Positions 34,400 through 60,817 are shown, counted from the first letter of the stretch. The stretch is 64,000 bases of DNA from an uncultured Acidimicrobiia bacterium (GCA_964370965.1 CAYJLW010000001.1:23509-87508); one strand, 5' to 3'. Notes: generated from the sequence alone by a model not told the origin. Program-made: numbers and translations.

Positions 34400-34572
34400 T
34401 CGGCGCCCGGGTCCGAGGGGGGACGAAGTCCCCCTTCGAGGGCGTGCGGTGAGGGTGGTCTGTTCGCTAGGCCGGGCTTTGCCCGGCCGGAACGGCGTGT
34501 GGCCCGGGTGGCGGGCGCGTCGGGGGGGGTGTTCGAGGGGGGACGAAGTCCCCCTTCGAGGGCGTGCGGTGG
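34400..34572. repeat. REP-like composite hairpin repeats: a partial copy plus a full ~115-bp unit (hairpin A GGCCGGGCtttGCCCGGCC + spacer + hairpin B GAAGGGGGACgaaGTCCCCCTTC)
   Basis: The core 'GTTCGAGGGGGGACGAAGTCCCCCTTCGAGGGCGTGCGGTG' occurs at 34411-34447 and 34533-34569, the second time within the full unit. A ~90%-identical unit recurs at 37540-37662 and a reverse-oriented copy at 54947-55030. Confidence 0.6.
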
Positions 34573-34937: not shown

Positions 34938-35003
34938 CCGGATCCGTCCGGTGTTGGAGGCGGGGCGTTCCGACGCTCCGCCTCCTCCGCGTCCCGGCGG
35001 GGT

Positions 35004-35095
35004 GGACGGAGGGTGAGGGATTCGAACCCTCGTGGCTCTTGCGAAGCCAACCTCGGAGTATCAATCCGGTGCCTTACCACTCGGCCAACCCTCCG
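35004..35095 (-). tRNA. class II (long variable arm) tRNA, Ser-like by its G73 discriminator; anticodon unresolved
   Basis: The reverse complement is GGAGGGTtgGCCgagtggtaaGGCa CCGGA TTGATAC TCCGA ggTTGGCTTcgcaaGAGCCAc GAGGGTTCGAATCCCTC ACCCTCC G. It has a 7-bp acceptor, T-loop TTCGAAT, a 6-bp variable-arm stem and no encoded CCA. A hand fold gives the anticodon loop UUGAUAC. Confidence 0.65.
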
Positions 35096-36521: not shown

Positions 36522-37487
36522 CTATCGCCCCCGCAATGGCCGATACGACAGACGCCGCCCGCCGACCTGGCCTACAAGACGTTCCATCCGCTCGGAGTCA
36601 GATTGCTTGCGGGTCGAGTGCCGGAAGTCGAACTCGGTCAGGTAGCGGTCCAGGTGCTCGACGGAGACATGGTGATGCGTGCCATCGAGCGAGCGCTTCA
36701 ACTGCGAGAAGTACGACTCCAGGTCGTTCGTGCTCACGTCACCGCGGACGTACTCGCCGGCCCCGTGATCGACGGTGTGATGTTCGTCGAACTGGCGACC
36801 GATTGGCTTGTACGCCGCCCACTTGTCGGTGTGCAGGACCGACCCGAAGGGCGCAACGTGTTCCTCGATGGCCTTGCCGAGCGTCGCCCCGGTGACGCTA
36901 AAGACCACGCGTGAGCGGACTTCGCCGGTCTCCTTGGACGTGAGCGAGAACACCGGGGTCTTGCTTGTCCCGCGGCCGCTGGTGCTGCAGCGCTTCGACG
37001 CGTGGCGGTTCTTCTCGTTCCCGCCGACGTAGGTCTCGTCCGCGACGATCGTGCCCTTCAGCATCCCGGCGAGTGGGTCGCGGCGCATGGCTTCGCGGAT
37101 GCGGTGGGTCATGAACCACGCGCTCTTCGGGGTCAGGCCGTACTTGCGCTCGATCTCTCGGGCCGACACGCCGTTCTTGCTGGCGCACATCTCGAACACG
37201 ACGAGCACCCAGGTTCGCACCGGGATCTTGCTGCCGTGGAAGATCGTCCCGGTGAGAACCGAGAACTGCTTGCGGCACGTGCCGCACTTCCACACTCGGC
37301 GCTGGCTCATGCTGCCGGTGCGGGTAGCGCGCGACGAGCCGTTGCGGGGCTTCAGGAAGTAGCAGCGCTCGGTGTTGCCGCAATGGGGGCAGATCGGCGT
37401 GCCGCCCCAGCGCAGTTCCTCAAGGAACTCGTAGGCGCTGGCCTCGTCGGGGATCCGCTCGATGATCATGAGCATGGAGATGTCCAT
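36522..37487 (-). mobile_element. IS1595-family (ISXO2-like) transposase gene, apparently intact
   Basis: N-terminal zinc ribbon 'CPHCGNTERCYF...WKCGTCRKQFSVLTGTIF', then the DDE domain ('IVADETYVGGNEKN', 'VLHTDKWAAYKP', 'STNDLESYFSQLKRSL'). IS boundaries were not determined. Confidence 0.75.
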
Positions 37488-37539: not shown

Positions 37540-37662
37540 CGGTAACGGTGGCCGTTTCGCAAGGCCGGGCTCTGCCCGGCCGGAACGGTGTGTGACTCGG
37601 GTGGCGGCCGCGTCGGGGGGGGTGTTCGAAGGGGGACGAAGTCCCCCTTCGAGGGCTCAACA
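37540..37662. repeat. second full copy of the ~115-bp REP-like composite unit (direct orientation relative to 34458-34572)
   Basis: 'GGTGGCCGTTTCGCAAGGCCGGGCTCTGCCCGGCCGGAACGGTGTGTGACTCGGGTGGCGGCCGCGTCGGGGGGGGTGTTCGAAGGGGGACGAAGTCCCCCTTCGAGGGC' is ~90% identical to the 34458-34572 unit. Confidence 0.6.
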
Positions 37663-50665: not shown

Positions 50666-51783
50666 CTAGCCCGTCCGCCCCTCAGAGGACAGGTCCGCGA
50701 GGAGGCCGGCGAGGGCCCTGCGCAGTCCGGACGGCGAGAACCGCTCCGCCAGGAGGGCGTGGTTGGCGTCCAGGACGGCGCCCCATCGGGTCTCGAGGAG
50801 CGAGCGGGCGCAGGTTCCCGGGTCGGCGGGGTCCAAGAGGGCGAAGCGGAACCCCAAGTCCAGGAACTCGCCGAGAACCGGGTACGCCGACACGGCCAGC
50901 GGCCGCCGGTGCGCCACGGATTCCATGACCGGGTTGCCGAAGCCCTCCCACTCGCTGGGCAGGGTCACGGCGAAGCAGGCAGCGTAGCCGTCGGCGATCG
51001 TGAAGCCGCCCCCGGGACCGAGGAGGTCGGGGCGCTGCATGACCTCGATCCCGGCGGCCTCCACGGCGGCGGCGAGGTCGGCCTCGTAGCCGTCCTCGGT
51101 GGCACCGGCGACGAGCAGGACGCTGCGCCGGCCCGTCTCCGCGGCCAGGGCCTCGCCGAGGGCGAGAGCGACAGGGATGCGCTTGCGCCGAATGGCGCGC
51201 GTGGGCTGGAAGAGGAGGACGTCGTCGCAGGCGACGCCGAGCTCCCTCCGCAGGGTGTCGGGACGCGTCCCCGGTGGCGGGTCCGGGTCGAAGCTGTTGG
51301 GGACCACGGTGGCCGCGATCCCGCGGCGGGCGAGGGTGTCCGCCGAGAGCCGGTTGACGGTGACGTGGTGCAGGTAGGGGAGGCGGGGGGGGAACGGGCC
51401 CTGTGTCCCCGTGCCGAGTCCGGCGAACTGCGCTCGCTGGTCGGGGAGGTCGTGGTGGTGGCCGATGGCGGGCCGGTCAACGAGGAGACGGACCAGAACC
51501 GCTGCCAGGTCCGGGTGGAGGGGGAGGCCGAAGACGTTCTCGACGACGACCACGTCGGCGGGAGCCAGGGCGTCGCGGAGACGGGCGGCGGGAACGGGGC
51601 GGGGCTCGGGCCGGTAGTGCAACTCCGGGATGACGACGTCGCCGACCTCCCGGCGGGCGCCGGGGATGAGACCCGCCACCCGGTAGGTGGTGTGCCCCAG
51701 ATCGGCGCACGCCGCCCGCCACTTCTCGGCTTCGACGGAGACTCCGTCGCCGTCCCCGAGCCGGAAGCTCACGAAGGCGACAC
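50666..51783 (-). CDS. GT4 family glycosyltransferase
   Basis: 'VAFVSFRLGDGDGVSVEAEKW' N-terminal GT-B start and C-terminal 'SEWEGFGNPVMESVAHRRPLAVS' (E-x7-E motif). The GTG start is internal to the 561-aa ORF. Confidence 0.7.
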
Positions 51784-51974
51784 GCAGGGACACCCGCGCA
51801 GCGTAGCCCCGAGCGGCTCCAGGGCCGCGCTCCTGGCGGGGCGCGGCGTTCCGGGCGGTCGCCGGAATGAGCCGATCGACCCATTCTCCCGAGGTCGACG
51901 AGTGCCGTTCTCTTCTCCATGTGCCGAATTCCGACGCGCCGGTCGATTCGGACACGAGTATCCGGAGGAACGAC

Positions 51975-52175
51975 ATGGCAACCATCCAGGACGAAGATGT
52001 CGAGTACCTGAGAGCGGCGGAGGCGGCGGCCCTGCTGCACGTCTCCCCGAAGACGGTGAGCCGGTGGGCGAAGGAGGGCAAGATCCCCTGCTTCGTCACC
52101 CTGGGTGGGCATCGTCGCTTCCCGCGGGGCGCCATCGAGAAGCTCGCGGGAGAGCGCCGCCACACCGGCGGCTGA
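51975..52175 (+). CDS. bldC: BldC-like MerR/excisionase-type small DNA-binding protein
   Basis: 'AAEAAALLHVSPKTVSRWAKEGKIPCFVTLGGHRRFPRGAIEKL' closely matches the actinobacterial BldC HTH. The start is at MATIQDED (66 aa). Confidence 0.6.
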   Translation: MATIQDEDVEYLRAAEAAALLHVSPKTVSRWAKEGKIPCFVTLGGHRRFPRGAIEKLAGERRHTGG

Positions 52176-52319: not shown

Positions 52320-52526
52320 GTGAGCGAGACGGAAATCAAGGTTGCGCGCAACGGGCCCTACCGCGTGGGAGGCACGTTCCGGCTACTGGACGCCGCCGGC
52401 CAAGAGATCCCTTGCGACGAGGAGATCTCGCTCTGCCGCTGCGGGCACTCGTCCGACAAGCCGTTCTGTGACGGCTCCCACCGGGAGTTCCACTTCGAGA
52501 GCGTCGTCCTCATGGAGGAGGAGTGA
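52320..52526 (+). CDS. CDGSH iron-sulfur domain protein
   Basis: 'CRCGHSSDKPFCDGSH' (C-x-C-x2-S-x3-P-x-CDGSH). Confidence 0.7.
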   Translation: MSETEIKVARNGPYRVGGTFRLLDAAGQEIPCDEEISLCRCGHSSDKPFCDGSHREFHFESVVLMEEE

Positions 52527-53320
52527 TGGGCGGCTACGAGAGCCTCCTGTACCGCGTCGACGGCCGCGTCGCCACGATCACCATCAACCGGGAGGAGCGG
52601 CGCAACGCCCTTTCCCCCCAGGTCATGTTCGAGCTCCGTGAGGCGTTCGCCGCAGCGAAGGCCGACCGGGACGTGCGGGTGGTCGTGCTCACGGGGGCGG
52701 GCGAGAGGGCTTTCTGCGCCGGCGCCGATCTCGGGGGCACCTTCCAGGGCGACGACCTCCCCGGCCCCCTCGACATGCACCACGACCGCGGACACCTTGC
52801 CGATCTGTTCCGGGACATGTGGCGCCTCGGCAAGCCGATCATCGCCCGGGTGCGGGGCTATGCCCTCGCCGGTGGCTGCGGTCTCGCCCTCGCCTGCGAC
52901 TTCGTGATCGCCGCCGAGGACGCCGTCTTCGGCACGCCTGAGATCGACCGCGGTCTCTGGCCGATGATGATCTCCGCCGTGCTCATGCGATCCATGCCGC
53001 CGAAGGTGGCCCTCGATCTCATGATGACCGGCCGGCGCGTCCCCGCCGCCGAAGCCCGGGAGATCGGTTTCGTGCGCAGCGTCGTGCCCGTCGCCGACCT
53101 CGACGCCGAGGTGGCCGACTTCGCCGGCGCGCTGGCGGCGAAGTCCCCGGCGATTCTCCGACTGGGGAGGGACGCGTTCTACGCCACGCTCGACATGAGT
53201 CGCGAGGAGGCCCTCTCCTACCTGCAGGCGATGCTCACCGTGAACACGCTCGCCGAGGACGTCGCCGAGGGCTTGGCGGCGTTCTTCGAGAAGCGCGACC
53301 CCGTCTGGAAAGGTCGGTAG
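52523..53320 (+). CDS. enoyl-CoA hydratase/isomerase (crotonase) family protein
   Basis: 'ATITINREERRNALS', 'VVVLTGAGERAFCAGADLGG', and 'ARVRGYALAGGCGLALACDFVIAAEDAVFGTPEIDRGLWP'. The start overlaps the CDGSH stop. Confidence 0.8.
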   Translation: MMGGYESLLYRVDGRVATITINREERRNALSPQVMFELREAFAAAKADRDVRVVVLTGAGERAFCAGADLGGTFQGDDLPGPLDMHHDRGHLADLFRDMWRLGKPIIARVRGYALAGGCGLALACDFVIAAEDAVFGTPEIDRGLWPMMISAVLMRSMPPKVALDLMMTGRRVPAAEAREIGFVRSVVPVADLDAEVADFAGALAAKSPAILRLGRDAFYATLDMSREEALSYLQAMLTVNTLAEDVAEGLAAFFEKRDPVWKGR

Positions 53321-53351
53321 GCGCCGAGCGCTGCCGTGGAGGGAGACAACC

Positions 53352-54947
53352 GTGAGTGACGACACGAAGGCGACGCCCGCCGCCCCGCATCTGGAGGCGG
53401 GCTGGGACGACCAGATCGCCGACCTGCACGCCCGCCGGGAACGGAACCTGGGCGGCGGCGGTCCGGAGAAGGTCGCCCGCCAGCACGAGCTCAACAAGGA
53501 GACCGTGCGCTGGCGCCTGGAGCGCCTTCTCGACCCGGGCAGCTTCGTCGAGTACGGCCTCCTCGGCGACCACATGGATCCGAGCCTCGGGGATCGCCAT
53601 GCTCCCGCCGACGGCGCTGTCTGCGGCATCGGCGAGATCGACGGCCGACGCGTGGCGATCGTCGCCTACGACTTCACCGTTATGGCGGGCTCGATGGGCG
53701 CCGTCGGGGAACGCAAGGTCGCCCGCATGCGCGACATGGCCCTCACGCAGCGGATCCCGATCGTCTGGCTGCTCGATTCCGCCGGGGCCCGCATCCAGCA
53801 GGCCACGGGCTCCACCTTCGCCATGGCGGGGGACCTCTTCCGGGAGCAGGTCGCCATGAGCGGGGTTGTCCCGCAGGTGGCGGCCATGCTCGGGCACTGC
53901 GCCGCCGGCACGGCGTACATCCCTGGCCTGGCGGACTTCGTGCCCATGGTCAAGGGCACGTCCTCGATGGCTCTCGGCGGCCGCCACCTCGTGAAGGCAG
54001 CGGTGGGCGAGGACGTCACCGAGGAGGAGATGGGCGGTTCCGCCGTGCACAACAAGATCTCCGGTTGTGCTGACCTCGAGGTCGCCGACGACGGGGAGTG
54101 CCTCGACGTCGTGCGCCGCTACCTGGGCTACTTCCCGTCGAACAACACCGAGGAACCACCTGTGGGAGCGGGCGACGACCCCGCCGACCGGCTCTGCCCG
54201 GAGCTGCGCGACATCGTCCCCACGGCGCCTCGGCGCGCCTACGACATGCGCAAGGTCATCGGGGTGATCGCCGACCGGGACTCGTGGTTCCCCATGAAGC
54301 CGGATTGGGCGAAGAACATCCTCACGGGCTTCGCCCGCTTCGGCGGCCGGCCCGTGGGCATCGTGGCCAACCAGCCGATGATGCTCGGCGGAGCCCTCGA
54401 CGTGAACTCCGCCGACAAGGCGGCCCGTTTCGTCTGGCTCTGCGACGCCTTCAACATCCCTCTCGTGTTCCTCATGGACGTCCCCGGCTTCATCGTGGGT
54501 TCCGGCGTGGAGAAGCAGGGCATCATCCGCCACGGCGCCAAGATGCTCTTCGCCGTCTCGGAGGCCACCGTGCCCAAGGTGACCGTCATCATGCGCAAGG
54601 CCTACGGTGCCGGCTACTTCGTGATGAACGGCCGGGCGTACGAGGCGGACTACATCGTGGCCTGGCCCACCGCCGAGATCTCGGTCATGGGCCCGGACGG
54701 GGCCGTGAACATAATCTTCCGCAAGCAGATCGAGGCGGCGCCCGAGGAGGAGCGCGACGCAGTCCGCCTCCAACTCGCCGAGGAGATCCGCAAGACGATC
54801 GACCCCTACATCGCCGCCGGCCACGGTCACATCGACGACGTCATCGATCCCGCCGAGACCCGCCAGGCGATCGTCAAGGGTCTCCGCCTCAGCCGCACGA
54901 AGCACGTCGACCGCCCCTGGCGCAAGCACGGCGTCCTCCCCGTGTGA
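53352..54947 (+). CDS. acyl-CoA carboxylase carboxyltransferase (beta) subunit
   Basis: Carboxyl-transferase N and C domains ('GSMGAVGERKVARMRDMALTQRIPIVWLLDSAGARIQQ' and 'GRAYEADYIVAWPTAEISVMGPDGAVNIIFRKQI'). Confidence 0.85.
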   Translation: MSDDTKATPAAPHLEAGWDDQIADLHARRERNLGGGGPEKVARQHELNKETVRWRLERLLDPGSFVEYGLLGDHMDPSLGDRHAPADGAVCGIGEIDGRRVAIVAYDFTVMAGSMGAVGERKVARMRDMALTQRIPIVWLLDSAGARIQQATGSTFAMAGDLFREQVAMSGVVPQVAAMLGHCAAGTAYIPGLADFVPMVKGTSSMALGGRHLVKAAVGEDVTEEEMGGSAVHNKISGCADLEVADDGECLDVVRRYLGYFPSNNTEEPPVGAGDDPADRLCPELRDIVPTAPRRAYDMRKVIGVIADRDSWFPMKPDWAKNILTGFARFGGRPVGIVANQPMMLGGALDVNSADKAARFVWLCDAFNIPLVFLMDVPGFIVGSGVEKQGIIRHGAKMLFAVSEATVPKVTVIMRKAYGAGYFVMNGRAYEADYIVAWPTAEISVMGPDGAVNIIFRKQIEAAPEEERDAVRLQLAEEIRKTIDPYIAAGHGHIDDVIDPAETRQAIVKGLRLSRTKHVDRPWRKHGVLPV

Positions 54948-55030
54948 CTCGAAGGGGGACTTCGTCCCCCCTCGAACTCCCCCCTGGAGAGCCGGGCCGT
55001 TTGCCGCCGGGGCGCCGTTCCGGGCCGGCG
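54947..55030. repeat. reverse-oriented copy of the REP-like hairpin unit at the accD / phage-remnant junction
   Basis: 'CTCGAAGGGGGACTTCGTCCCCCCTCGAAC' is the reverse complement of the 34.4/37.6 kb core. It is followed by a degenerate match to hairpin A ('CGCCGTTCCGGGCCGG'). Confidence 0.5.
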
Positions 55031-55493
55031 GAGCCGTCCCTCCGGCCCCGCTCTGGGAAGGACCACGGCGAGAGGACTGGGCGCTGGCGGGGTGGGGGGT
55101 CCCCGCCGGCACGCGGAGCGCGGCGACGGTGTCGGCGTCGGCGGCTCCGGCCCGGACGGCGGCCTCGGCGAGGGCGGCCCGTATCAGCCGTTGGTTGGCG
55201 GCGGTGAGGGCCTGGTCGCGGGCCGTCTCGGCGGCCCGGCGGGCCTCCTGTTCCTTCTCGAGCTCGGTCTTGGTGGCCGCCTCGTACTCGTCGGCCTTGG
55301 CCGCTTTCGCTTTGAGCTGGTCGTAGTCGGCGTAGCGGTCCCGTTCCCGGCGGAGGCGGTCCTGGACGACACGGTCCACGTCGGCCTGGGTGAAAGCGCG
55401 CCCCCCGTCGTCGGGGGTGGGTGCCGGCGGGCCGCCCGGCCCCTCAGGGTCGGGGGCGGGTGGGGCCGTGGGGGTGGGTGTCGGGTCGGCCAT
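54980..55493 (-). CDS. phage scaffolding-protein-like gene (DUF4355-like), prophage remnant
   Basis: 'AFTQADVDRVVQDRLRRERDRYADYDQLKAKAAKADEYEAATKTELEKEQEARRAAETARDQALTAANQRLIRAALAEA' is a typical actinophage head-scaffold sequence. The 3' end is undefined: the ORF continues as the antisense of accD. Confidence 0.45.
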
Positions 55494-55589
55494 GGGCTGT
55501 TCCTCCGGTGTGGAGTGGCCACCCCTTGTTCGGGCGGGGGTGTGGCGCCTCTTCCCGCCCAGGGGCGGGAGACCTTACGATGGGGGGCG

Positions 55590-55835
55590 ATGGAGGACTT
55601 CGAGCGGGGCGACCTCTTCGAGCAGCTCGTCTGCGCCGTGTGCGGCAAGAAGGCGACGTGGTCGCTCGCTGTGGGCTGGGTGCGCCTCTACCAGGTCGGC
55701 CCCGAGGTCGTGGCGGCCCTACGGCCGGTCGACACGATGGACGTGTGTTCTGAGGAGTGCGGCCAGGTGTGGTTCGGGGTGTCGCCGGTCAGGCGTTGGG
55801 ACGAGTACCACTGGGCGGCGCGACGGGGCCGATGA
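55590..55835 (+). CDS. small Cys-rich (zinc-ribbon-like) hypothetical protein
   Basis: 'MEDFERGDLFEQLVCAVCGKKATW...DVCSEECGQVWF' carries C-x2-C ... C-x3-C. It overlaps the 3' end of the opposite-strand small ORF by 47 bp, so one of the two may be spurious. Confidence 0.3.
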   Translation: MEDFERGDLFEQLVCAVCGKKATWSLAVGWVRLYQVGPEVVAALRPVDTMDVCSEECGQVWFGVSPVRRWDEYHWAARRGR

Positions 55836-56058
55836 GACGCCCATCGAAAGGTCGCCTGAGTGCAATGGCGATTCGTAACGCCTCGGCCTCGTCCACTTCG
55901 TCGACGCCAGGCTCGCCCTGAAAGAGGTATCCGGCAAGACCGGGAGCCGGTGTCCAGCCGCCTGGAGTGAGCGTTTCTAGATTCGCTCCGTCCCTCGTCC
56001 GATAGAGCGCCTCGGCAGGATCGGTCTTCTTGAGTCGACGTGCCAGATACGTGATCAT
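55789..56058 (-). CDS. small hypothetical protein immediately downstream of the MuF-RelA/SpoT gene (candidate immunity/antitoxin)
   Basis: Its ATG lies 19 nt after the toxin stop. The product is 89 aa: 'MITYLARRLKKTDPAEALYRTRDGANLETLTPGGWTPAPGLAGYLFQGEPGVDEVDEAEALRIAIAL...'. The role is assigned by position only. Confidence 0.3.
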   Translation of the reverse strand: MITYLARRLKKTDPAEALYRTRDGANLETLTPGGWTPAPGLAGYLFQGEPGVDEVDEAEALRIAIALRRPFDGRLIGPVAPPSGTRPNA

Positions 56059-56076
56059 CCCTTGTCACACTACTCC

Positions 56077-57618
56077 TCAGGGAAGATCTACGGCTCCGAG
56101 AGGAGTCGGGACGCTTCGATCAGCCATGCCCGTCATCTCCTGAGCGATCTGCCGCTTCCGTTCCGGCAGGGTTTCGATGGGGCGGGCTTCCTCGTAGAGG
56201 TCGTGGGTGCTCTGCTTGTGCTGGTAGCTGCGCTCGGTGTGGAACTGCACCTCGAACCTCTGACCGTCCTTCGATTCGAAGACGACGTTCAAGCCCCGGT
56301 ACGGCCCACCACCCCACGTGTTGCGTGCAGTGAGGATCTTGTGGCCTTGGCGATCGAGGTCTGCCAAGAGAGCCCGCACACTGCCCACGTAGGCGTGCTC
56401 GTCGAACACCGCCGTGAAACGAACGGAGTCTCCGATGGCGGCGACAGCGTCGTCGAGAGACGCGCCGTCCGCCATCTGGCGCTCGATCTTCTCGGCGATC
56501 GAAGTGGGCGTCTTGAGACGGTGGCCAAGACCGACTATCCGGCCGCCAGCCGTGGCCGCTGCAGCACTGACACCCGCTGTGACGCGAGGCTCGGCAGCCT
56601 TCGCTATGCGGGCGACGACCTCAGCGGCATCACGGACTTCGTTGGGTCCGGTGGTGGCGGCGGCCTCCCGGAGGGCCTTTTGGCGGGCCGCAGCGGCCTT
56701 CCGGAACCCCTTGGCGTCCTCGGCCCCCACAATGTCCCGGAGGGGCCGGGCGGAGCGTGTCGAACCCCACTCGGCGGACAGCTTCCGGCCGACGACCCCG
56801 GTGCCCGGGTGCTCGTCGAGGGTCAGGCGGCCCGCCTTGTAGGCCTCGTAGCGGGACGGCCCCAGGATCTCGCGCTGCTGGCTCTCGGGGAGGCGGGCGA
56901 AACGGGCGGCGCCCGACTCGACGTCGGCACGGGTCTCGGGGACGCCGGTGAGGTCGACGCCGAACCGGTCGCCGATCTCCGCCCAGGGTTTCGTGACCGG
57001 CACCATGGCACACCGGCAGGCGGGGTGGCCGTCGAGGCGTTCGTCGAGGCGGTGGCGGGTGCCGTGCATCGCCCAGCACGCCGGGCAGGTCCGCCGGTCC
57101 GTCGCCGAGTGCCACACCCAGCCGTCCACCACATCCGAGTTCGCCGTGTACGAGCGGCGGCTGGCCTCCCGGTAGGCCCGCAGTGTTTCGGTACGGGCGA
57201 TGGTCAACGCCCGGGTGAGGCTCGTGCCGAGCGTGTCCCTGAGCGCCCGGGCCGTCACCCGGGGGGACTGGCCGAGGATCAGGCCGGTGACGAGGGTGTC
57301 GGCGGCGGACCGGGCGGCCTGCGCCCCGAACGGTGCGAAGAGCCGGGCGAGGGGTGAGCCGGGGGAGGTGAACCCGGCGAGGTCGTCCAGAGCGCCGGTC
57401 GGCAGCGTCGCCCAGGTGTTGGTGACCGCCGGGCGGACCTTGCGGGGCACCTGGGCGGTGACGGTCTCGCGGGCGTGGGTTTCGGCGGCGGCGACGACGT
57501 CGGCGTGCGCCCGGCGGGTCTGTTCGTCGGCTGCGGCGGCGGCCTTCGCTGTCTCCGTCTCGACTTGGGCGAGGAGCGTCCGGTAGCGGTCCTGTTGGAA
57601 CAGCCACGCGGGCGACAC
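56077..57618 (-). CDS. MuF (Phage_Mu_F/SPP1 gp7-like) head-morphogenesis protein fused to a C-terminal RelA/SpoT-like small alarmone synthetase (toxSAS) domain
   Basis: The MuF domain carries 'LTIARTETLRAYREASRRSYTANSDVVDGWVWHSATDRRTCPACWAMHGTRHRLDERLDGHPACRCAMVPV'. The C-terminal ~130 aa match the RelA/SpoT nucleotidyltransferase signature blocks: 'RLKTPTSIAEKIERQ' (RxKxxxSxxEKxxR), 'IGDSVRFTAVFD' (D-x-x-G-x-R), 'GPYRGLNVVF' (GYRSxH-like) and 'RFEVQFHTERSYQHKQSTHDLYEE' (the EVQIRT block). Confidence 0.7.
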   Translation of the reverse strand: MSPAWLFQQDRYRTLLAQVETETAKAAAAADEQTRRAHADVVAAAETHARETVTAQVPRKVRPAVTNTWATLPTGALDDLAGFTSPGSPLARLFAPFGAQAARSAADTLVTGLILGQSPRVTARALRDTLGTSLTRALTIARTETLRAYREASRRSYTANSDVVDGWVWHSATDRRTCPACWAMHGTRHRLDERLDGHPACRCAMVPVTKPWAEIGDRFGVDLTGVPETRADVESGAARFARLPESQQREILGPSRYEAYKAGRLTLDEHPGTGVVGRKLSAEWGSTRSARPLRDIVGAEDAKGFRKAAAARQKALREAAATTGPNEVRDAAEVVARIAKAAEPRVTAGVSAAAATAGGRIVGLGHRLKTPTSIAEKIERQMADGASLDDAVAAIGDSVRFTAVFDEHAYVGSVRALLADLDRQGHKILTARNTWGGGPYRGLNVVFESKDGQRFEVQFHTERSYQHKQSTHDLYEEARPIETLPERKRQIAQEMTGMADRSVPTPLGAVDLP

Positions 57619-57842
57619 GGTCTCCCCGGCGGCCTGGGCTGTGGCGATACGGTCGGCGAGCCGGTCAGACCTTTTGCGGATCTCCCGCCACGCGCGCCCG
57701 TAGGCCTCGACGACGCGGTTGGCGGTCGGAGCCCGGCCTTGCGAGTGGCCCCCTGGGCTTCACTACCTCCGTCGGCGGGGGCGCGTCTAGCTTTCCCCCG
57801 ACCTTGACGTCTCCGACGACAAAGAGTGAGAAGGGGGCCGGC

Positions 57843-58055
57843 GTGGCCGAGGTGTGTTCCGAGATGGTGGCGAACGTGTGGCAGGTCGTCGTGTCCGTAG
57901 GCGACACGGTGGCAGAGGACGACACCCTCGTCATCCTGGAGTCCATGAAGATGGAGATCCCCGTCGTCTCCCCGGTCGACGGCGAGGTGAAGGAGATCCG
58001 CGTCAAGCCCGAGGACGTCGTCCAGGAGGGCGACGTGATCGTGGTCGTCGAGTGA
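57843..58055 (+). CDS. biotin/lipoyl-attachment domain protein (biotin carboxyl carrier-like)
   Basis: 'VVVSVGDTVAEDDTLVILESMKMEIPVVSPVDGEVKEIRVKPEDVVQEGDVIVVVE' has the biotinyl-lysine in the E(A/S)MKM motif. The start is ambiguous (GTG 57843 or ATG 57864). Confidence 0.7.
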   Translation: MAEVCSEMVANVWQVVVSVGDTVAEDDTLVILESMKMEIPVVSPVDGEVKEIRVKPEDVVQEGDVIVVVE

Positions 58056-58849
58056 GCGAGGCCCCTCCCGAAGGCGACGCACCCCTCGAGATCGACGGCG
58101 GCGTCGCCACCGTCACGCTGCGGCGACCGGCACGGCGCAACGCCCTGTCCACGCCCATGGCCGATCGCATTGTCGCCGCGCTCGAGGCCGCCGACGCCGA
58201 TCCGGAGGTGCGCGTCGTCCTGCTGACCGGTGAGCCCCCGGCTTTCTGCGCGGGCGCGGACCTCACTGACTTCGACGAGAGCCCGGGCCGGGGCGGGTTC
58301 CTCCATGCCTACCACCGTCTCGTGGACACCATCTCGGCGGTCCGGGCGCCCGTCGTGGCCTTCGCGAACGGCCCCGCTCTGGGCGCCGGCTGCCAACTCG
58401 TCTGCCAGTGCGACCTCCGGGTCGCCGCCGCTTCCGCGCCCCTCGGGATCCCGGCCGCCCGCATCGGCCTCATGCTCGACCCCGTGAACCTCAACCGCCT
58501 CGTCACCGAGATCGGCCCGTCCGCGGCCCGGCTCCTCCTCCTCACGGGCAAGCCGGTGAGCGGTGAGGACGCCGTCCGCCTCGGTGTCGTCCACCGCGTC
58601 GTGGCCGACGCCGACGCGGCGTCAGCGGCCCGGGCCTGGGCCGAGGAGATCGCCGCCCAGGCCCCGCTGTCGGTGCAGGGTCACAAGGCCGCTGTACGCG
58701 CTGTCGTGGAGTCGTGGTGGCTCCCTGAGTCCGCGCCCGCCTATGCCCGCGTGATCGAGCATTGGCAGTCGGCGCTGGGCTCCGAGGACATCCAGGAGGG
58801 TGTGCGGGCTTTCGCGGAACGCCGCGACCCGCGGTTCTCCGGCCGTTGA
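58052..58849 (+). CDS. enoyl-CoA hydratase/isomerase family protein
   Basis: 'VATVTLRRPARRNALS', 'VVLLTGEPPAFCAGADL' and 'ANGPALGAGCQLVCQCDLRVAA'. The GTG start overlaps the biotin-domain gene's stop (GTGA). Confidence 0.8.
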   Translation: MSEAPPEGDAPLEIDGGVATVTLRRPARRNALSTPMADRIVAALEAADADPEVRVVLLTGEPPAFCAGADLTDFDESPGRGGFLHAYHRLVDTISAVRAPVVAFANGPALGAGCQLVCQCDLRVAAASAPLGIPAARIGLMLDPVNLNRLVTEIGPSAARLLLLTGKPVSGEDAVRLGVVHRVVADADAASAARAWAEEIAAQAPLSVQGHKAAVRAVVESWWLPESAPAYARVIEHWQSALGSEDIQEGVRAFAERRDPRFSGR

Positions 58850-59355: not shown

Positions 59356-60084
59356 GTGGCCGGCCGGTTCCTGAGCGCGTTCGCCGGGGGCATGCTGTCG
59401 TTCCTGTCCCCGTGCGTGCTGCCACTCGTCCCGGCCTACCTCTCGATAGTGGCGGGCGTTTCCGTGGAGGAGGTGCAGTCGGGCACGAAGCGGCTCGCGG
59501 TCGTGCGCGGGACCGCCCTCTTCATGTCCGGTTTCACGATCGTCTTCGTGGCCCTCGGTGCTACGGCCTCGGCGGTCGGGGCGTTCCTGCTTTCGCACCG
59601 GCGGCCCTTCGAGGTGGCCTCGGGCGTTCTCGTGATCGTCTTCGGCGTGTTCCTCGCCGGCGCCGTGCGGCCCTCGTGGTTGGAGCAGGAGCGCCGTTTC
59701 CACCTCGACCGCTCCCTCGGGACCTGGGGGGCGCCGCTCCTCGGCGGGGCCTTCGCCTTCGGCTGGACCCCGTGCATCGGCCCCATCCTCGGCACCGTCC
59801 TCACGCTCGCCGCCAGGGAGGCGAGCGTCGCCCAGGGCGTCCTCCTCCTGTTCGGCTACTCCCTCGGCCTCGGGATCCCGTTCCTCCTCTCGGGCCTCGC
59901 CCTCTCCGAGCTGTCCGGTCTCTTCGGCTGGGTGAAGCGCCACTTCCGTGCCCTCAACCTCGCCGCGGGCGCCATCCTCGTCGTCTTCGGTGTCCTCCTC
60001 CTCACCAACCAGGTCACGAGGATCTCCGGCTGGATCCAGACCTTCTTCGAATGGATCGGCCTCGACCGCCTCACCAACATCTGA
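59356..60084 (+). CDS. ccdA: cytochrome c biogenesis thiol:disulfide transporter CcdA (DsbD-beta-like)
   Basis: 'FLSPCVLPLVPAYLS' and a second Cys in 'FGWTPCIGPILG', with six TM helices. Confidence 0.8.
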   Translation: MAGRFLSAFAGGMLSFLSPCVLPLVPAYLSIVAGVSVEEVQSGTKRLAVVRGTALFMSGFTIVFVALGATASAVGAFLLSHRRPFEVASGVLVIVFGVFLAGAVRPSWLEQERRFHLDRSLGTWGAPLLGGAFAFGWTPCIGPILGTVLTLAAREASVAQGVLLLFGYSLGLGIPFLLSGLALSELSGLFGWVKRHFRALNLAAGAILVVFGVLLLTNQVTRISGWIQTFFEWIGLDRLTNI

Positions 60085-60136: not shown

Positions 60137-60817
60137 TTACCTCTCCCGGGTGGCCTTCGGGAAGAGCTCGCGGAGCTTCCGGTTGAGTTCCGCCTCGCTC
60201 ATCTCGCCCGCCCGGGAGTCGACGACGACCCCGTCGGCGTCCACGAAGTAGGTCGAGGGAAGGCCGAAGAGCGAATAGGAGGCGGAGACGGAGTCGTCCC
60301 GGTCGAGGGCGAGGGGATACGTGATGTCCCGTTCGGTGGCGAACGCCCGGGCCGCCGCCTCAGTGTCCCCGGAGGCGATCCCGAGGAATTGCACCCGGCC
60401 CCCGTACGTCCTGTAGAGCCGCTCGAAGGCAGGCATCTCCGCCTTGCAGGGCACGCACCACGACGCCCAGAAGTTGAGGACGAGGGGCCGGCCGCGGAAG
60501 GACTCCAGGGTGCGCTGCTTCCCCTTGAAGTCCACGACGCTGAAGGGCGGTGCCGGCTGGGGGTCGTCCCGCCCGGGGAGGATGATCGTGGGGTCGGGCC
60601 GTCCGGACGGCGTGGTTCTCGGGTCGGCGGCGCGGTCGCTCCCGGATTCCGCGGGGCCGAAGAGGACGAGGCCCACGACGACGCAGGCGACGAGCACCAC
60701 CACGGCGGCGAGGAGGCCCGGGGAGCGTCGTGGCCGGCGGGGAGGCGCCAGCGCGCCGGGGTCGTCGGGCACGACGGGCGGTTCGGTGCCCGGGTCGGGA
60801 GGTGGCGTGTCGGTCAT
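60137..60817 (-). CDS. membrane-anchored TlpA/ResA-like thioredoxin (cytochrome c maturation)
   Basis: TM 'LLAAVVVLVACVVVGLVLF' and 'LNFWASWCVPCKAEMP'. Confidence 0.75.
   Translation of the reverse strand: MTDTPPPDPGTEPPVVPDDPGALAPPRRPRRSPGLLAAVVVLVACVVVGLVLFGPAESGSDRAADPRTTPSGRPDPTIILPGRDDPQPAPPFSVVDFKGKQRTLESFRGRPLVLNFWASWCVPCKAEMPAFERLYRTYGGRVQFLGIASGDTEAAARAFATERDITYPLALDRDDSVSASYSLFGLPSTYFVDADGVVVDSRAGEMSEAELNRKLRELFPKATRER

Follow-up and report, generated by a model that had tools for sequence, protein, structure and literature searches.

What has brought genes for phage head assembly into the middle of a conserved metabolic gene cluster, and why have they been kept there? The question is raised by positions 54,948 to 57,842 of a 64,000-nucleotide stretch of DNA from an uncultured Acidimicrobiia bacterium (GCA_964370965.1, CAYJLW010000001.1:23509-87508), the whole of which we call the window and from whose first letter all coordinates are counted. 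Between the stop codon of an acyl-CoA carboxyltransferase (CT) gene at 54947 and the start codon of a biotin carboxyl-carrier protein (BCCP) gene at 57843 lies an interval of 2,895 bp (the insert), and the part of it from about 55040 to 57723 reads as the remnant of a head-assembly module. We consider it probable that this is a non-mobile relic of the head module of a tailed temperate phage, with a MuF toxin and a putative immunity gene encoding 89 amino acids (aa), and that it has been kept most likely for the immunity. Such a relic would carry an Apk2-type MuF toxin, the 89-aa immunity gene, an open reading frame (ORF) on the plus strand and the 5′ three-quarters of a scaffold gene. The features of the insert are as follows.

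56077-57723, minus strand: MuF-toxin gene, 5′-truncated; homology starts at 57723
57004-57300, minus strand: core MuF / SPP1 gp7 domain (PF04233, 2.5e-15; TIGR01641, 7e-16)
56089-56661, minus strand: RSH-type alarmone synthetase (Apk/EAS) toxin domain (PDB 8vx3, 1.1e-28)
55789-56058, minus strand: 89-aa ORF, candidate cognate immunity protein; starts 18 nt after the toxin stop
55867-56352, minus strand: toxin-C-terminus/immunity cassette, with 74% DNA identity to a second genome; overlaps most of the GC minimum
55590-55835, plus strand: 81-aa ORF with a CxxC...CxxxC pattern (coding statistics; public-contig gene call)
55038-55493, minus strand: 5′ ~152 codons of a phage head-scaffolding gene (phrog_1793, 2.5e-16)
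57724-57842, no strand: right junction, 119 bp without phage homology, ending in the BCCP ribosome-binding site (sequence and alignment)

The MuF-toxin gene and its phage context

An earlier, sequence-only reading of this DNA had described phage-like genes on the opposite strand between the CT stop and the biotin-carrier gene, and matches to PF04233, to the alarmone synthetase SaEAS and to scaffolding PHROGs bear it out; the MuF and scaffold similarities that it named are both recovered by profile searches at the E-values listed above. No stop or frameshift interrupts the 560 codons of the MuF-toxin reading frame (56077-57759). Its first possible start is a GTG at 57618, with a GGAG motif 3 nt upstream, from which a 513-aa protein would be made; the PF04233 match covers residues 107-205 of that ORF and scores 57.6 bits against a gathering threshold of 29.6. 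More than 100 MuF proteins match the window protein at 40-54% identity, and their C-termini vary (ATLF, ADP-ribosyltransferase, intein-containing forms and portal fusions), as expected of a polymorphic toxin family. When residues 23-343 of the MuF protein of a viral contig (L088) are compared with the window by tblastn, they align to 57723-56725 at 50% identity (3.5e-97), this being the closest viral homologue; in the same frame, what lies before 57723 has no counterpart in MuF homologues, and about 22 N-terminal residues are missing. Homology thus sets in only at residue 23 of the homologue: the gene lacks about 22 codons, its start codon and all that once preceded them.

At the other end of the module, the scaffold fragment starts with an ATG at 55493 and has a GGAGGAA ribosome-binding site upstream. 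Its residues 4-152 align to positions 14-164 of the 193 in phrog_1793, a “head scaffolding” profile, and six further scaffolding PHROGs match. The profile match stops at 164/193 and the frame (ORF 53235-55493) stays open, without a stop near the end of homology, into the antisense of CT; the 3′ end of the gene is therefore gone. The sequence-only reading had called this gene scaffold-like and of the DUF4355 type: the first half of that description stands, but Pfam does not confirm the second, DUF4355 being the top Pfam match at a sub-threshold score (E 0.019; 15.6 bits versus a cut-off of 25.4). It had also seen small ORFs of the phage strand between toxin and scaffold, where there is one on the minus strand (55789-56058) and another (55590-55835) on the plus strand.

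The order of genes in two viral sequences shows what the module would once have adjoined. In L088 it runs terminase, portal, MuF, three small ORFs, scaffold and major capsid, and in the Pasteurella phage Pmp13 terminase, portal, MuF/Apk2, a 72-aa ORF, an HD phosphohydrolase and further head genes. The window retains the MuF-to-scaffold segment alone, cut inside both end genes, and the portal, capsid and terminase of L088 find no match in its 64 kb, in keeping with the earlier suggestion of a portal-MuF-scaffold-capsid order from which portal and capsid are missing. The 64 kb also hold no integrase gene; no att-like direct repeats or terminal inverted repeats flank the insert, and no tRNA lies near it, the only one in the window being ~20 kb away. 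In a blastn search of 50,697 phage genomes for a parent phage, the nucleotide similarity to phages that might have been expected came to just short matches of 67-70% in the MuF core, and scans of viral contigs and metagenomes for a closer parent reached no more than 55% identity, confined to the MuF part.

Base composition sets part of the module apart. The window is high-GC DNA, about 70%, and at 55850-56299 GC is 0.60-0.61, among the lowest of the 500-bp windows of the 64 kb; the drop to ~60% that had been noticed around 55840-56060 is thereby recovered. Over the toxin-C-terminus/immunity cassette (55867-56352) GC is 0.60-0.62. The toxin tip and the immunity candidate have a GC of about 0.62 and third-position values (GC3) of 0.75 and 0.62, respectively, beside a MuF part whose GC3 of 0.93 is host-like and a scaffold fragment at 0.88. 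The insert as a whole is not deviant (tetranucleotide rank 87/153), so a compositional anomaly holds for the toxin tip and immunity region and not for the full length of the insert. A low-GC toxin tip and immunity gene next to a host-like MuF part would fit a swappable cassette on a host-adapted phage.

The toxin domain and its candidate immunity gene

The toxin domain makes up the C-terminal ~190 residues of the protein. Its closest solved structure by sequence is SaEAS of Streptomyces albidoflavus (PDB 8vx3; PMC12691689), matched over 189 residues; it also matches the C-terminus of the XopAD effector (2.9e-36) and phrog_7625 (2.2e-44), and Pfam RelA_SpoT falls below threshold (E 0.0021). We found 3581 representative homologues of the domain (E<=1e-3), and the N-terminal partners among ten that were scanned include T7SS_signal, DUF6861 and VG15. 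Aligned by BLASTP with Pmp13 gp53, a MuF-Apk2 protein, residues 134-557 of the window protein match residues 133-538 (E 4e-45), an end-to-end alignment.

The motifs RLKTPTSIAEK, GDSVRFT, YRGLN and EVQFHT are all present in the domain. The signatures of adenosine 3′-pyrophosphokinases are RYT in syn2, GxN in syn3 and YH in syn4 (PMC12226406), for which the window toxin has RFT, GLN and FH, with Y-to-F changes at two signature positions. SaEAS is inactivated by the substitution D121A (PMC12691689), and the equivalent aspartate is present in the window toxin, within GDSVRF. To judge by these residues, the catalytic apparatus looks intact. SaEAS itself yields (p)ppApp as well as (p)ppGpp (PMC12691689), and to judge by sequence the window toxin may make either or both. 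Apk2 homologues are known in Actinomycetota (PMC12226406).

At the sequence level, the locus fits the known family of MuF polymorphic toxins, Apk2 subtype. It has the N-terminal MuF domain, the shared C-terminal toxin domain and the downstream ORF of <150 aa by which such toxins were recognized (Jamet et al. 2017), and departs from that description in not lying immediately downstream of a portal inside a (pro)phage. The same fusion of MuF with an RSH-type adenosine 3′-pyrophosphokinase is found in the Apk2 MuF toxins of prophages of Streptococcus pneumoniae, Bacteroides caccae, Mannheimia and Pasteurella (PMC12226406, PMC10083569, PMC5576092), with which the window shares the Apk-type syn2/3/4 signatures, the small downstream ORF and the place ahead of the scaffold gene in the head module. 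The window copy differs in its loss of 22 codons at the 5′ end, in the lack of a portal upstream and of a surrounding phage, and in its host, an uncultured Acidimicrobiia bacterium; its toxin domain is about 30-35% identical to those of characterized members. SaEAS shares the catalytic motifs but is a stand-alone, Sec-secreted enzyme without an immunity gene, whereas the window domain is the tip of a MuF protein with an immunity-like ORF behind it. Fusion to MuF likewise separates it from the stand-alone toxSAS enzymes (CapRel, FaRel, PhRel). The locus would extend Apk2/EAS-type MuF toxins to uncultured Acidimicrobiia and leaves the current understanding of these systems unchanged.

The 89-aa ORF has no match in Pfam, PHROG, NCBIfam or PADLOC. 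Its sole homologue is an 83-aa protein (P0122) with 73% identity, found on 11 contigs of another genome from the same European Nucleotide Archive (ENA) study. By blastn against contigs of this second genome (L100-L107), the insert is 74% identical in DNA over 487 bp, which take in the last ~95 codons of the toxin and the first ~64 of the small ORF. Over 72 codons of the 89-aa ORF and P0122, dN/dS is 0.19 at a dS of about 1.07. In the second genome (e.g., L100:207-749; all contigs end within ~500 bp upstream) the small ORF is intact, and of the toxin there is a remnant just upstream, disrupted by two frameshifts and an in-frame stop; its truncated 5′ end adjoins the 3′ end of a weakly Hydantoinase_B-like gene. 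Beyond the small ORF, the neighbourhood includes a 219-aa gene, RadC and a type I restriction-modification (R-M) system with AbiEi/AbiEii between hsdM and hsdR. We rejected the second-genome locus as a head-module remnant in its own right, the downstream 219-aa gene having no PHROG or Pfam match.

A small ORF that stays conserved beside a decaying toxin stub is what an orphan immunity gene classically looks like (PMC3482391). Because the second genome keeps the small ORF under purifying selection and lets the toxin decay, the 89-aa ORF is by this comparison a real, selected gene, and we infer from its position and evolutionary pattern only that it is the cognate immunity gene. As in the displaced toxin tips and orphan immunity genes of contact-dependent inhibition (CDI), Rhs and MafB systems (PMC3482391), the 3′ fragment of the toxin decays in the second genome next to an intact immunity gene, and what the two genomes share is the toxin C-terminus plus the immunity gene. 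The window differs in that its toxin domain is complete and still joined to most of the delivery domain; the same erosion seems to be less advanced there. Window and second genome would then give a two-stage snapshot of polymorphic-toxin immunity genes outliving their phages, and the 89-aa protein would represent a candidate immunity family without a recognizable fold or family.

Pmp13 has both a 72-aa ORF and a “metal-dependent phosphohydrolase” behind its toxin, and the window has one candidate immunity gene. The 89-aa ORF shows no sequence similarity to the Pmp13 72-aa protein, and tblastn of the 72-aa protein and the phosphohydrolase against the window found nothing. We also looked for the decayed remains of an HD-hydrolase immunity gene in the DNA from the 89-aa ORF to the scaffold, and found none.

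Retention and origin of the relic

The proposal for MuF toxins is that they travel inside the capsid and are injected along with the phage DNA (PMC5576092). Apk2 toxin domains exhaust ATP by making (p)ppApp, and a specific binder, a hydrolase or both neutralize them (PMC12226406, PMC10083569). Once in a cell, an intact toxin of the window type would be expected to overproduce (p)ppApp and/or (p)ppGpp and so to drain ATP. Phage-mediated delivery from this locus is impossible, because the portal, the capsid, the MuF N-terminus, the start codon and the promoter are gone. The likely functional unit would be the immunity gene, which may protect its host against the same toxin arriving from related phages. 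It might also neutralize any shortened toxin whose translation starts at the internal GTG (57618), and toxin and immunity gene would then be a pair that is hard to lose, in an addiction-like manner. We infer the enzymatic activity of the relic, its expression and the reason for its retention from comparisons of this kind. The sequence-only reading had taken the retained piece to be the toxin/immunity cassette of a degraded prophage: toxin domain and small ORF are indeed intact, but the start codon of the toxin is lost, and the cassette may in practice be an immunity gene with a possibly silent toxin.

Earlier work describes both small immunity ORFs downstream of MuF toxins and muf genes that lie in prophage remnants (PMC5576092), cryptic remnants accounting for 3% of chromosomal muf genes. 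The window resembles those in having a muf gene outside an intact prophage beside head genes, and is an unusually small case (2.7 kb, no portal or terminase), wedged into a conserved metabolic cluster. A fragment of ~2.7 kb is not an intact or inducible prophage, and as a degraded prophage it would be a fairly ordinary one.

Several observations weigh against retention for immunity. The original start codon of the toxin gene is lost, and a promoter/terminator scan, which is weak for this phylum, found no sigma-70-like promoter; the same scan gave no terminator signal, and Rfam found nothing in the insert region. Inside the region of homology, the MuF part differs at 6 positions that are invariant in 11 homologues, compared with 0-5 for each homologue left out in turn, and these deviations may hint at relaxed constraint. 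For its part, the 89-aa ORF has a low GC3 (0.62) and only the one homologue, and the AlphaFold2 (AF2) model of its product has a pLDDT of 49, the structure not being modellable. The hydrolase-type second immunity protein of characterized Apk2 loci is absent. Finally, the open ORFs may reflect nothing but the recency of the deletions.

These points lead to the rival view that the segment is inert debris, the remnant of a recent deletion whose toxin and immunity genes are unexpressed and whose ORFs are open for lack of time to decay. A toxin gene without start codon and upstream region, a cut scaffold gene, the failure to find a promoter-like site and the slight excess of changes at invariant MuF positions (6 versus 0-5) would all suit it, as would the near identity of the sampled strains, which leaves no population signal of selection. 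The host-like tetranucleotide composition of the whole can be set beside this view and gives no evidence of recent arrival. Against it, the second genome has kept the immunity gene under purifying selection (dN/dS 0.19) with the toxin decayed, which argues that the gene is worth keeping in the community, and in the window the 560 codons of the MuF-toxin frame carry no frameshift or stop and the catalytic motifs are intact. We regard inert debris as a rather doubtful account of the locus.

How the segment arrived is a separate matter, which turns on the host locus. Its features are the following.

52523-53320, plus strand: enoyl-CoA hydratase (ECH), host flank
53352-54947, plus strand: CT, left flank (PF01039, 6.4e-161)
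54948-55040, plus strand: host repetitive extragenic palindromic (REP)-like element, a hairpin (54948-54977) and a second conserved block (repeat copies)
57843-58055, plus strand: BCCP, right flank, 70 aa (PF00364, 2.2e-17)
58052-58849, plus strand: second ECH, host flank

All four genes of the crotonase-carboxyltransferase-biotin carrier-crotonase set that had been read from the sequence are confirmed. BCCP also matches NF004547 (3.4e-27; residues 15-83 of an 83-aa translation), and its start at 57843 coincides with the gene call in the public contigs (70 aa) and agrees with the NCBIfam alignment. The exact MuF-toxin and CT proteins recur on at least 23 contigs (from the ENA study, whose assemblies include ERZ13692934-ERZ13693048), in identical gene order throughout; the insert is present in 23/23 of the contigs read that carry the toxin protein, and three same-strain contigs compared at the DNA level are 99.8-99.98% identical to the window. 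Given this recurrence and identity, the arrangement is real and fixed in the sampled population, and not an assembly chimera. In a single-nucleotide polymorphism (SNP) analysis of the three same-strain contigs, the differences were too few, and clustered like assembly errors, and gave no population signal of selection. Two of the same-strain contigs (L082/L083) have tight clusters of mismatches at window 51351-51384, 55457-55507, 59527-59559 and 60564-60648; many of these mismatches are T-to-G or C-to-G and resemble contig-end or assembly errors rather than real polymorphism.

For comparison we used the best relatives, 80 Acidimicrobiia/Actinomycetota loci from metagenome-assembled genomes, in which CT orthologues have 60-78% aa identity and the ECH-CT-BCCP-ECH order is widely conserved. 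By these CT relatives the host is Acidimicrobiia-like and not a Streptomyces. Both CT and BCCP are visible in 58 of them. BCCP starts -5 to 166 bp after CT in 25/58, so an “empty” state of the site exists and the adjacency asked about elsewhere is real; the remaining 33/58 have 0.4-2.75 kb of unrelated cargo between the two genes, and the junction is therefore a generally permissive site. The cargo includes GNAT acetyltransferases, SDRs, MFS transporters, a methyltransferase, BKACE-like enzymes and small membrane proteins, and a MuF or scaffold match occurs in 0/80 loci. The CT-BCCP junction is a cargo hot spot across Acidimicrobiia. Certain of its cargos recur across several lineages.

A permissive site invites the alternative that no prophage ever integrated here and that 2.7 kb of phage DNA was instead captured as a fragment and pasted in, for example by break repair or REP-like recombination. 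Both ends of the segment lie inside phage genes, no att-like repeats, integrase or nearby tRNA are found, relatives have taken up many unrelated cargos at the same junction, and the REP-like element sits exactly at one edge. Deletion from two sides of an integrated prophage would nevertheless arrive at the same end state, and the second genome testifies that such a locus can wear away step by step until the immunity gene is left. The data fit in-situ decay and fragment capture alike; taken by itself as an explanation, we hold capture to be unlikely.

Very improbable, in our view, is domestication of the truncated MuF-toxin and immunity gene as a chromosomal toxin-antitoxin or abortive-infection module on the model of the toxSAS systems CapRel and FaRel, and the chance is just as slim for a variant in which the MuF part engages the portal of an invading related phage and the toxin is unleashed or mis-packaged: the toxin domain does belong to the RSH/toxSAS superfamily, the ORF is open from the internal GTG with GGAG 3 nt upstream, and a type I R-M/AbiE island neighbours the immunity homologue of the other genome, but none of the four ORFs matches a PADLOC model, the architecture is that of a virion-delivered toxin and of no known defence system, and an arbitrary cut inside MuF together with a co-retained broken scaffold speaks for accident over design. 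Were it true, the immunity gene would be a resistance gene that circulates by itself in the community, as in the second genome. Retention of a phage relic for its immunity gene is the reading that we prefer to all of these.

The plus-strand ORF, the repeats and neighbouring genes

The 81-aa ORF has GC values of 0.70/0.49/0.90 at codon positions 1/2/3, typical of coding DNA in this genome. It lies on the opposite strand to the phage genes, and its 3′ end overlaps that of the 89-aa ORF by 47 bp. A search of 5.8 billion proteins returned nothing but the ORF itself, no Pfam, PHROG, NCBIfam or PADLOC match was found, and the AF2 model of the protein has a pLDDT of 48.

The REP-like element follows the CT stop without any gap and borders on the end of the scaffold homology, in line with the earlier statement that a copy of the repeat stands exactly at the CT-side junction. 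Positions 54948-54977 (plus strand) are an exact 30-nt copy of 34531-34560 (minus strand), and further copies with 1 mismatch each lie at 34411-34440 and 37624-37653 (both minus strand); 100 shuffles gave 0 matches. By alignment and blastn the similarity spans ~100 nt, with the GC-rich 30-nt hairpin at its head. Each copy stands just 3′ of a gene end and is co-oriented with that gene, and the element is in none of the non-self loci fetched. It behaves like a host intergenic, terminator-like repeat and not like phage DNA, and may be specific to this lineage. The hairpin was also tested as the end of an IS1595 element (36522-37487), without support.

The IS1595-family transposase itself (36522-37487, minus strand; DDE_Tnp_IS1595, 4e-37, plus a zinc ribbon) falls within 34.4-38 kb, the part of the window whose composition deviates most and which has REP-like copies on either side. 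Genes for a MerR/HTH_17 regulator (51867-52175, plus strand) and a CDGSH iron-sulfur zinc-finger protein (52320-52526, plus strand) immediately precede the ECH-CT cluster, and both are called in same-strain public contigs. The single tRNA of the window, at 35003-35095 (minus strand), is unusually long, being given as a 93-nt Ile(GAT) by ARAGORN and as 88 nt by Rfam.

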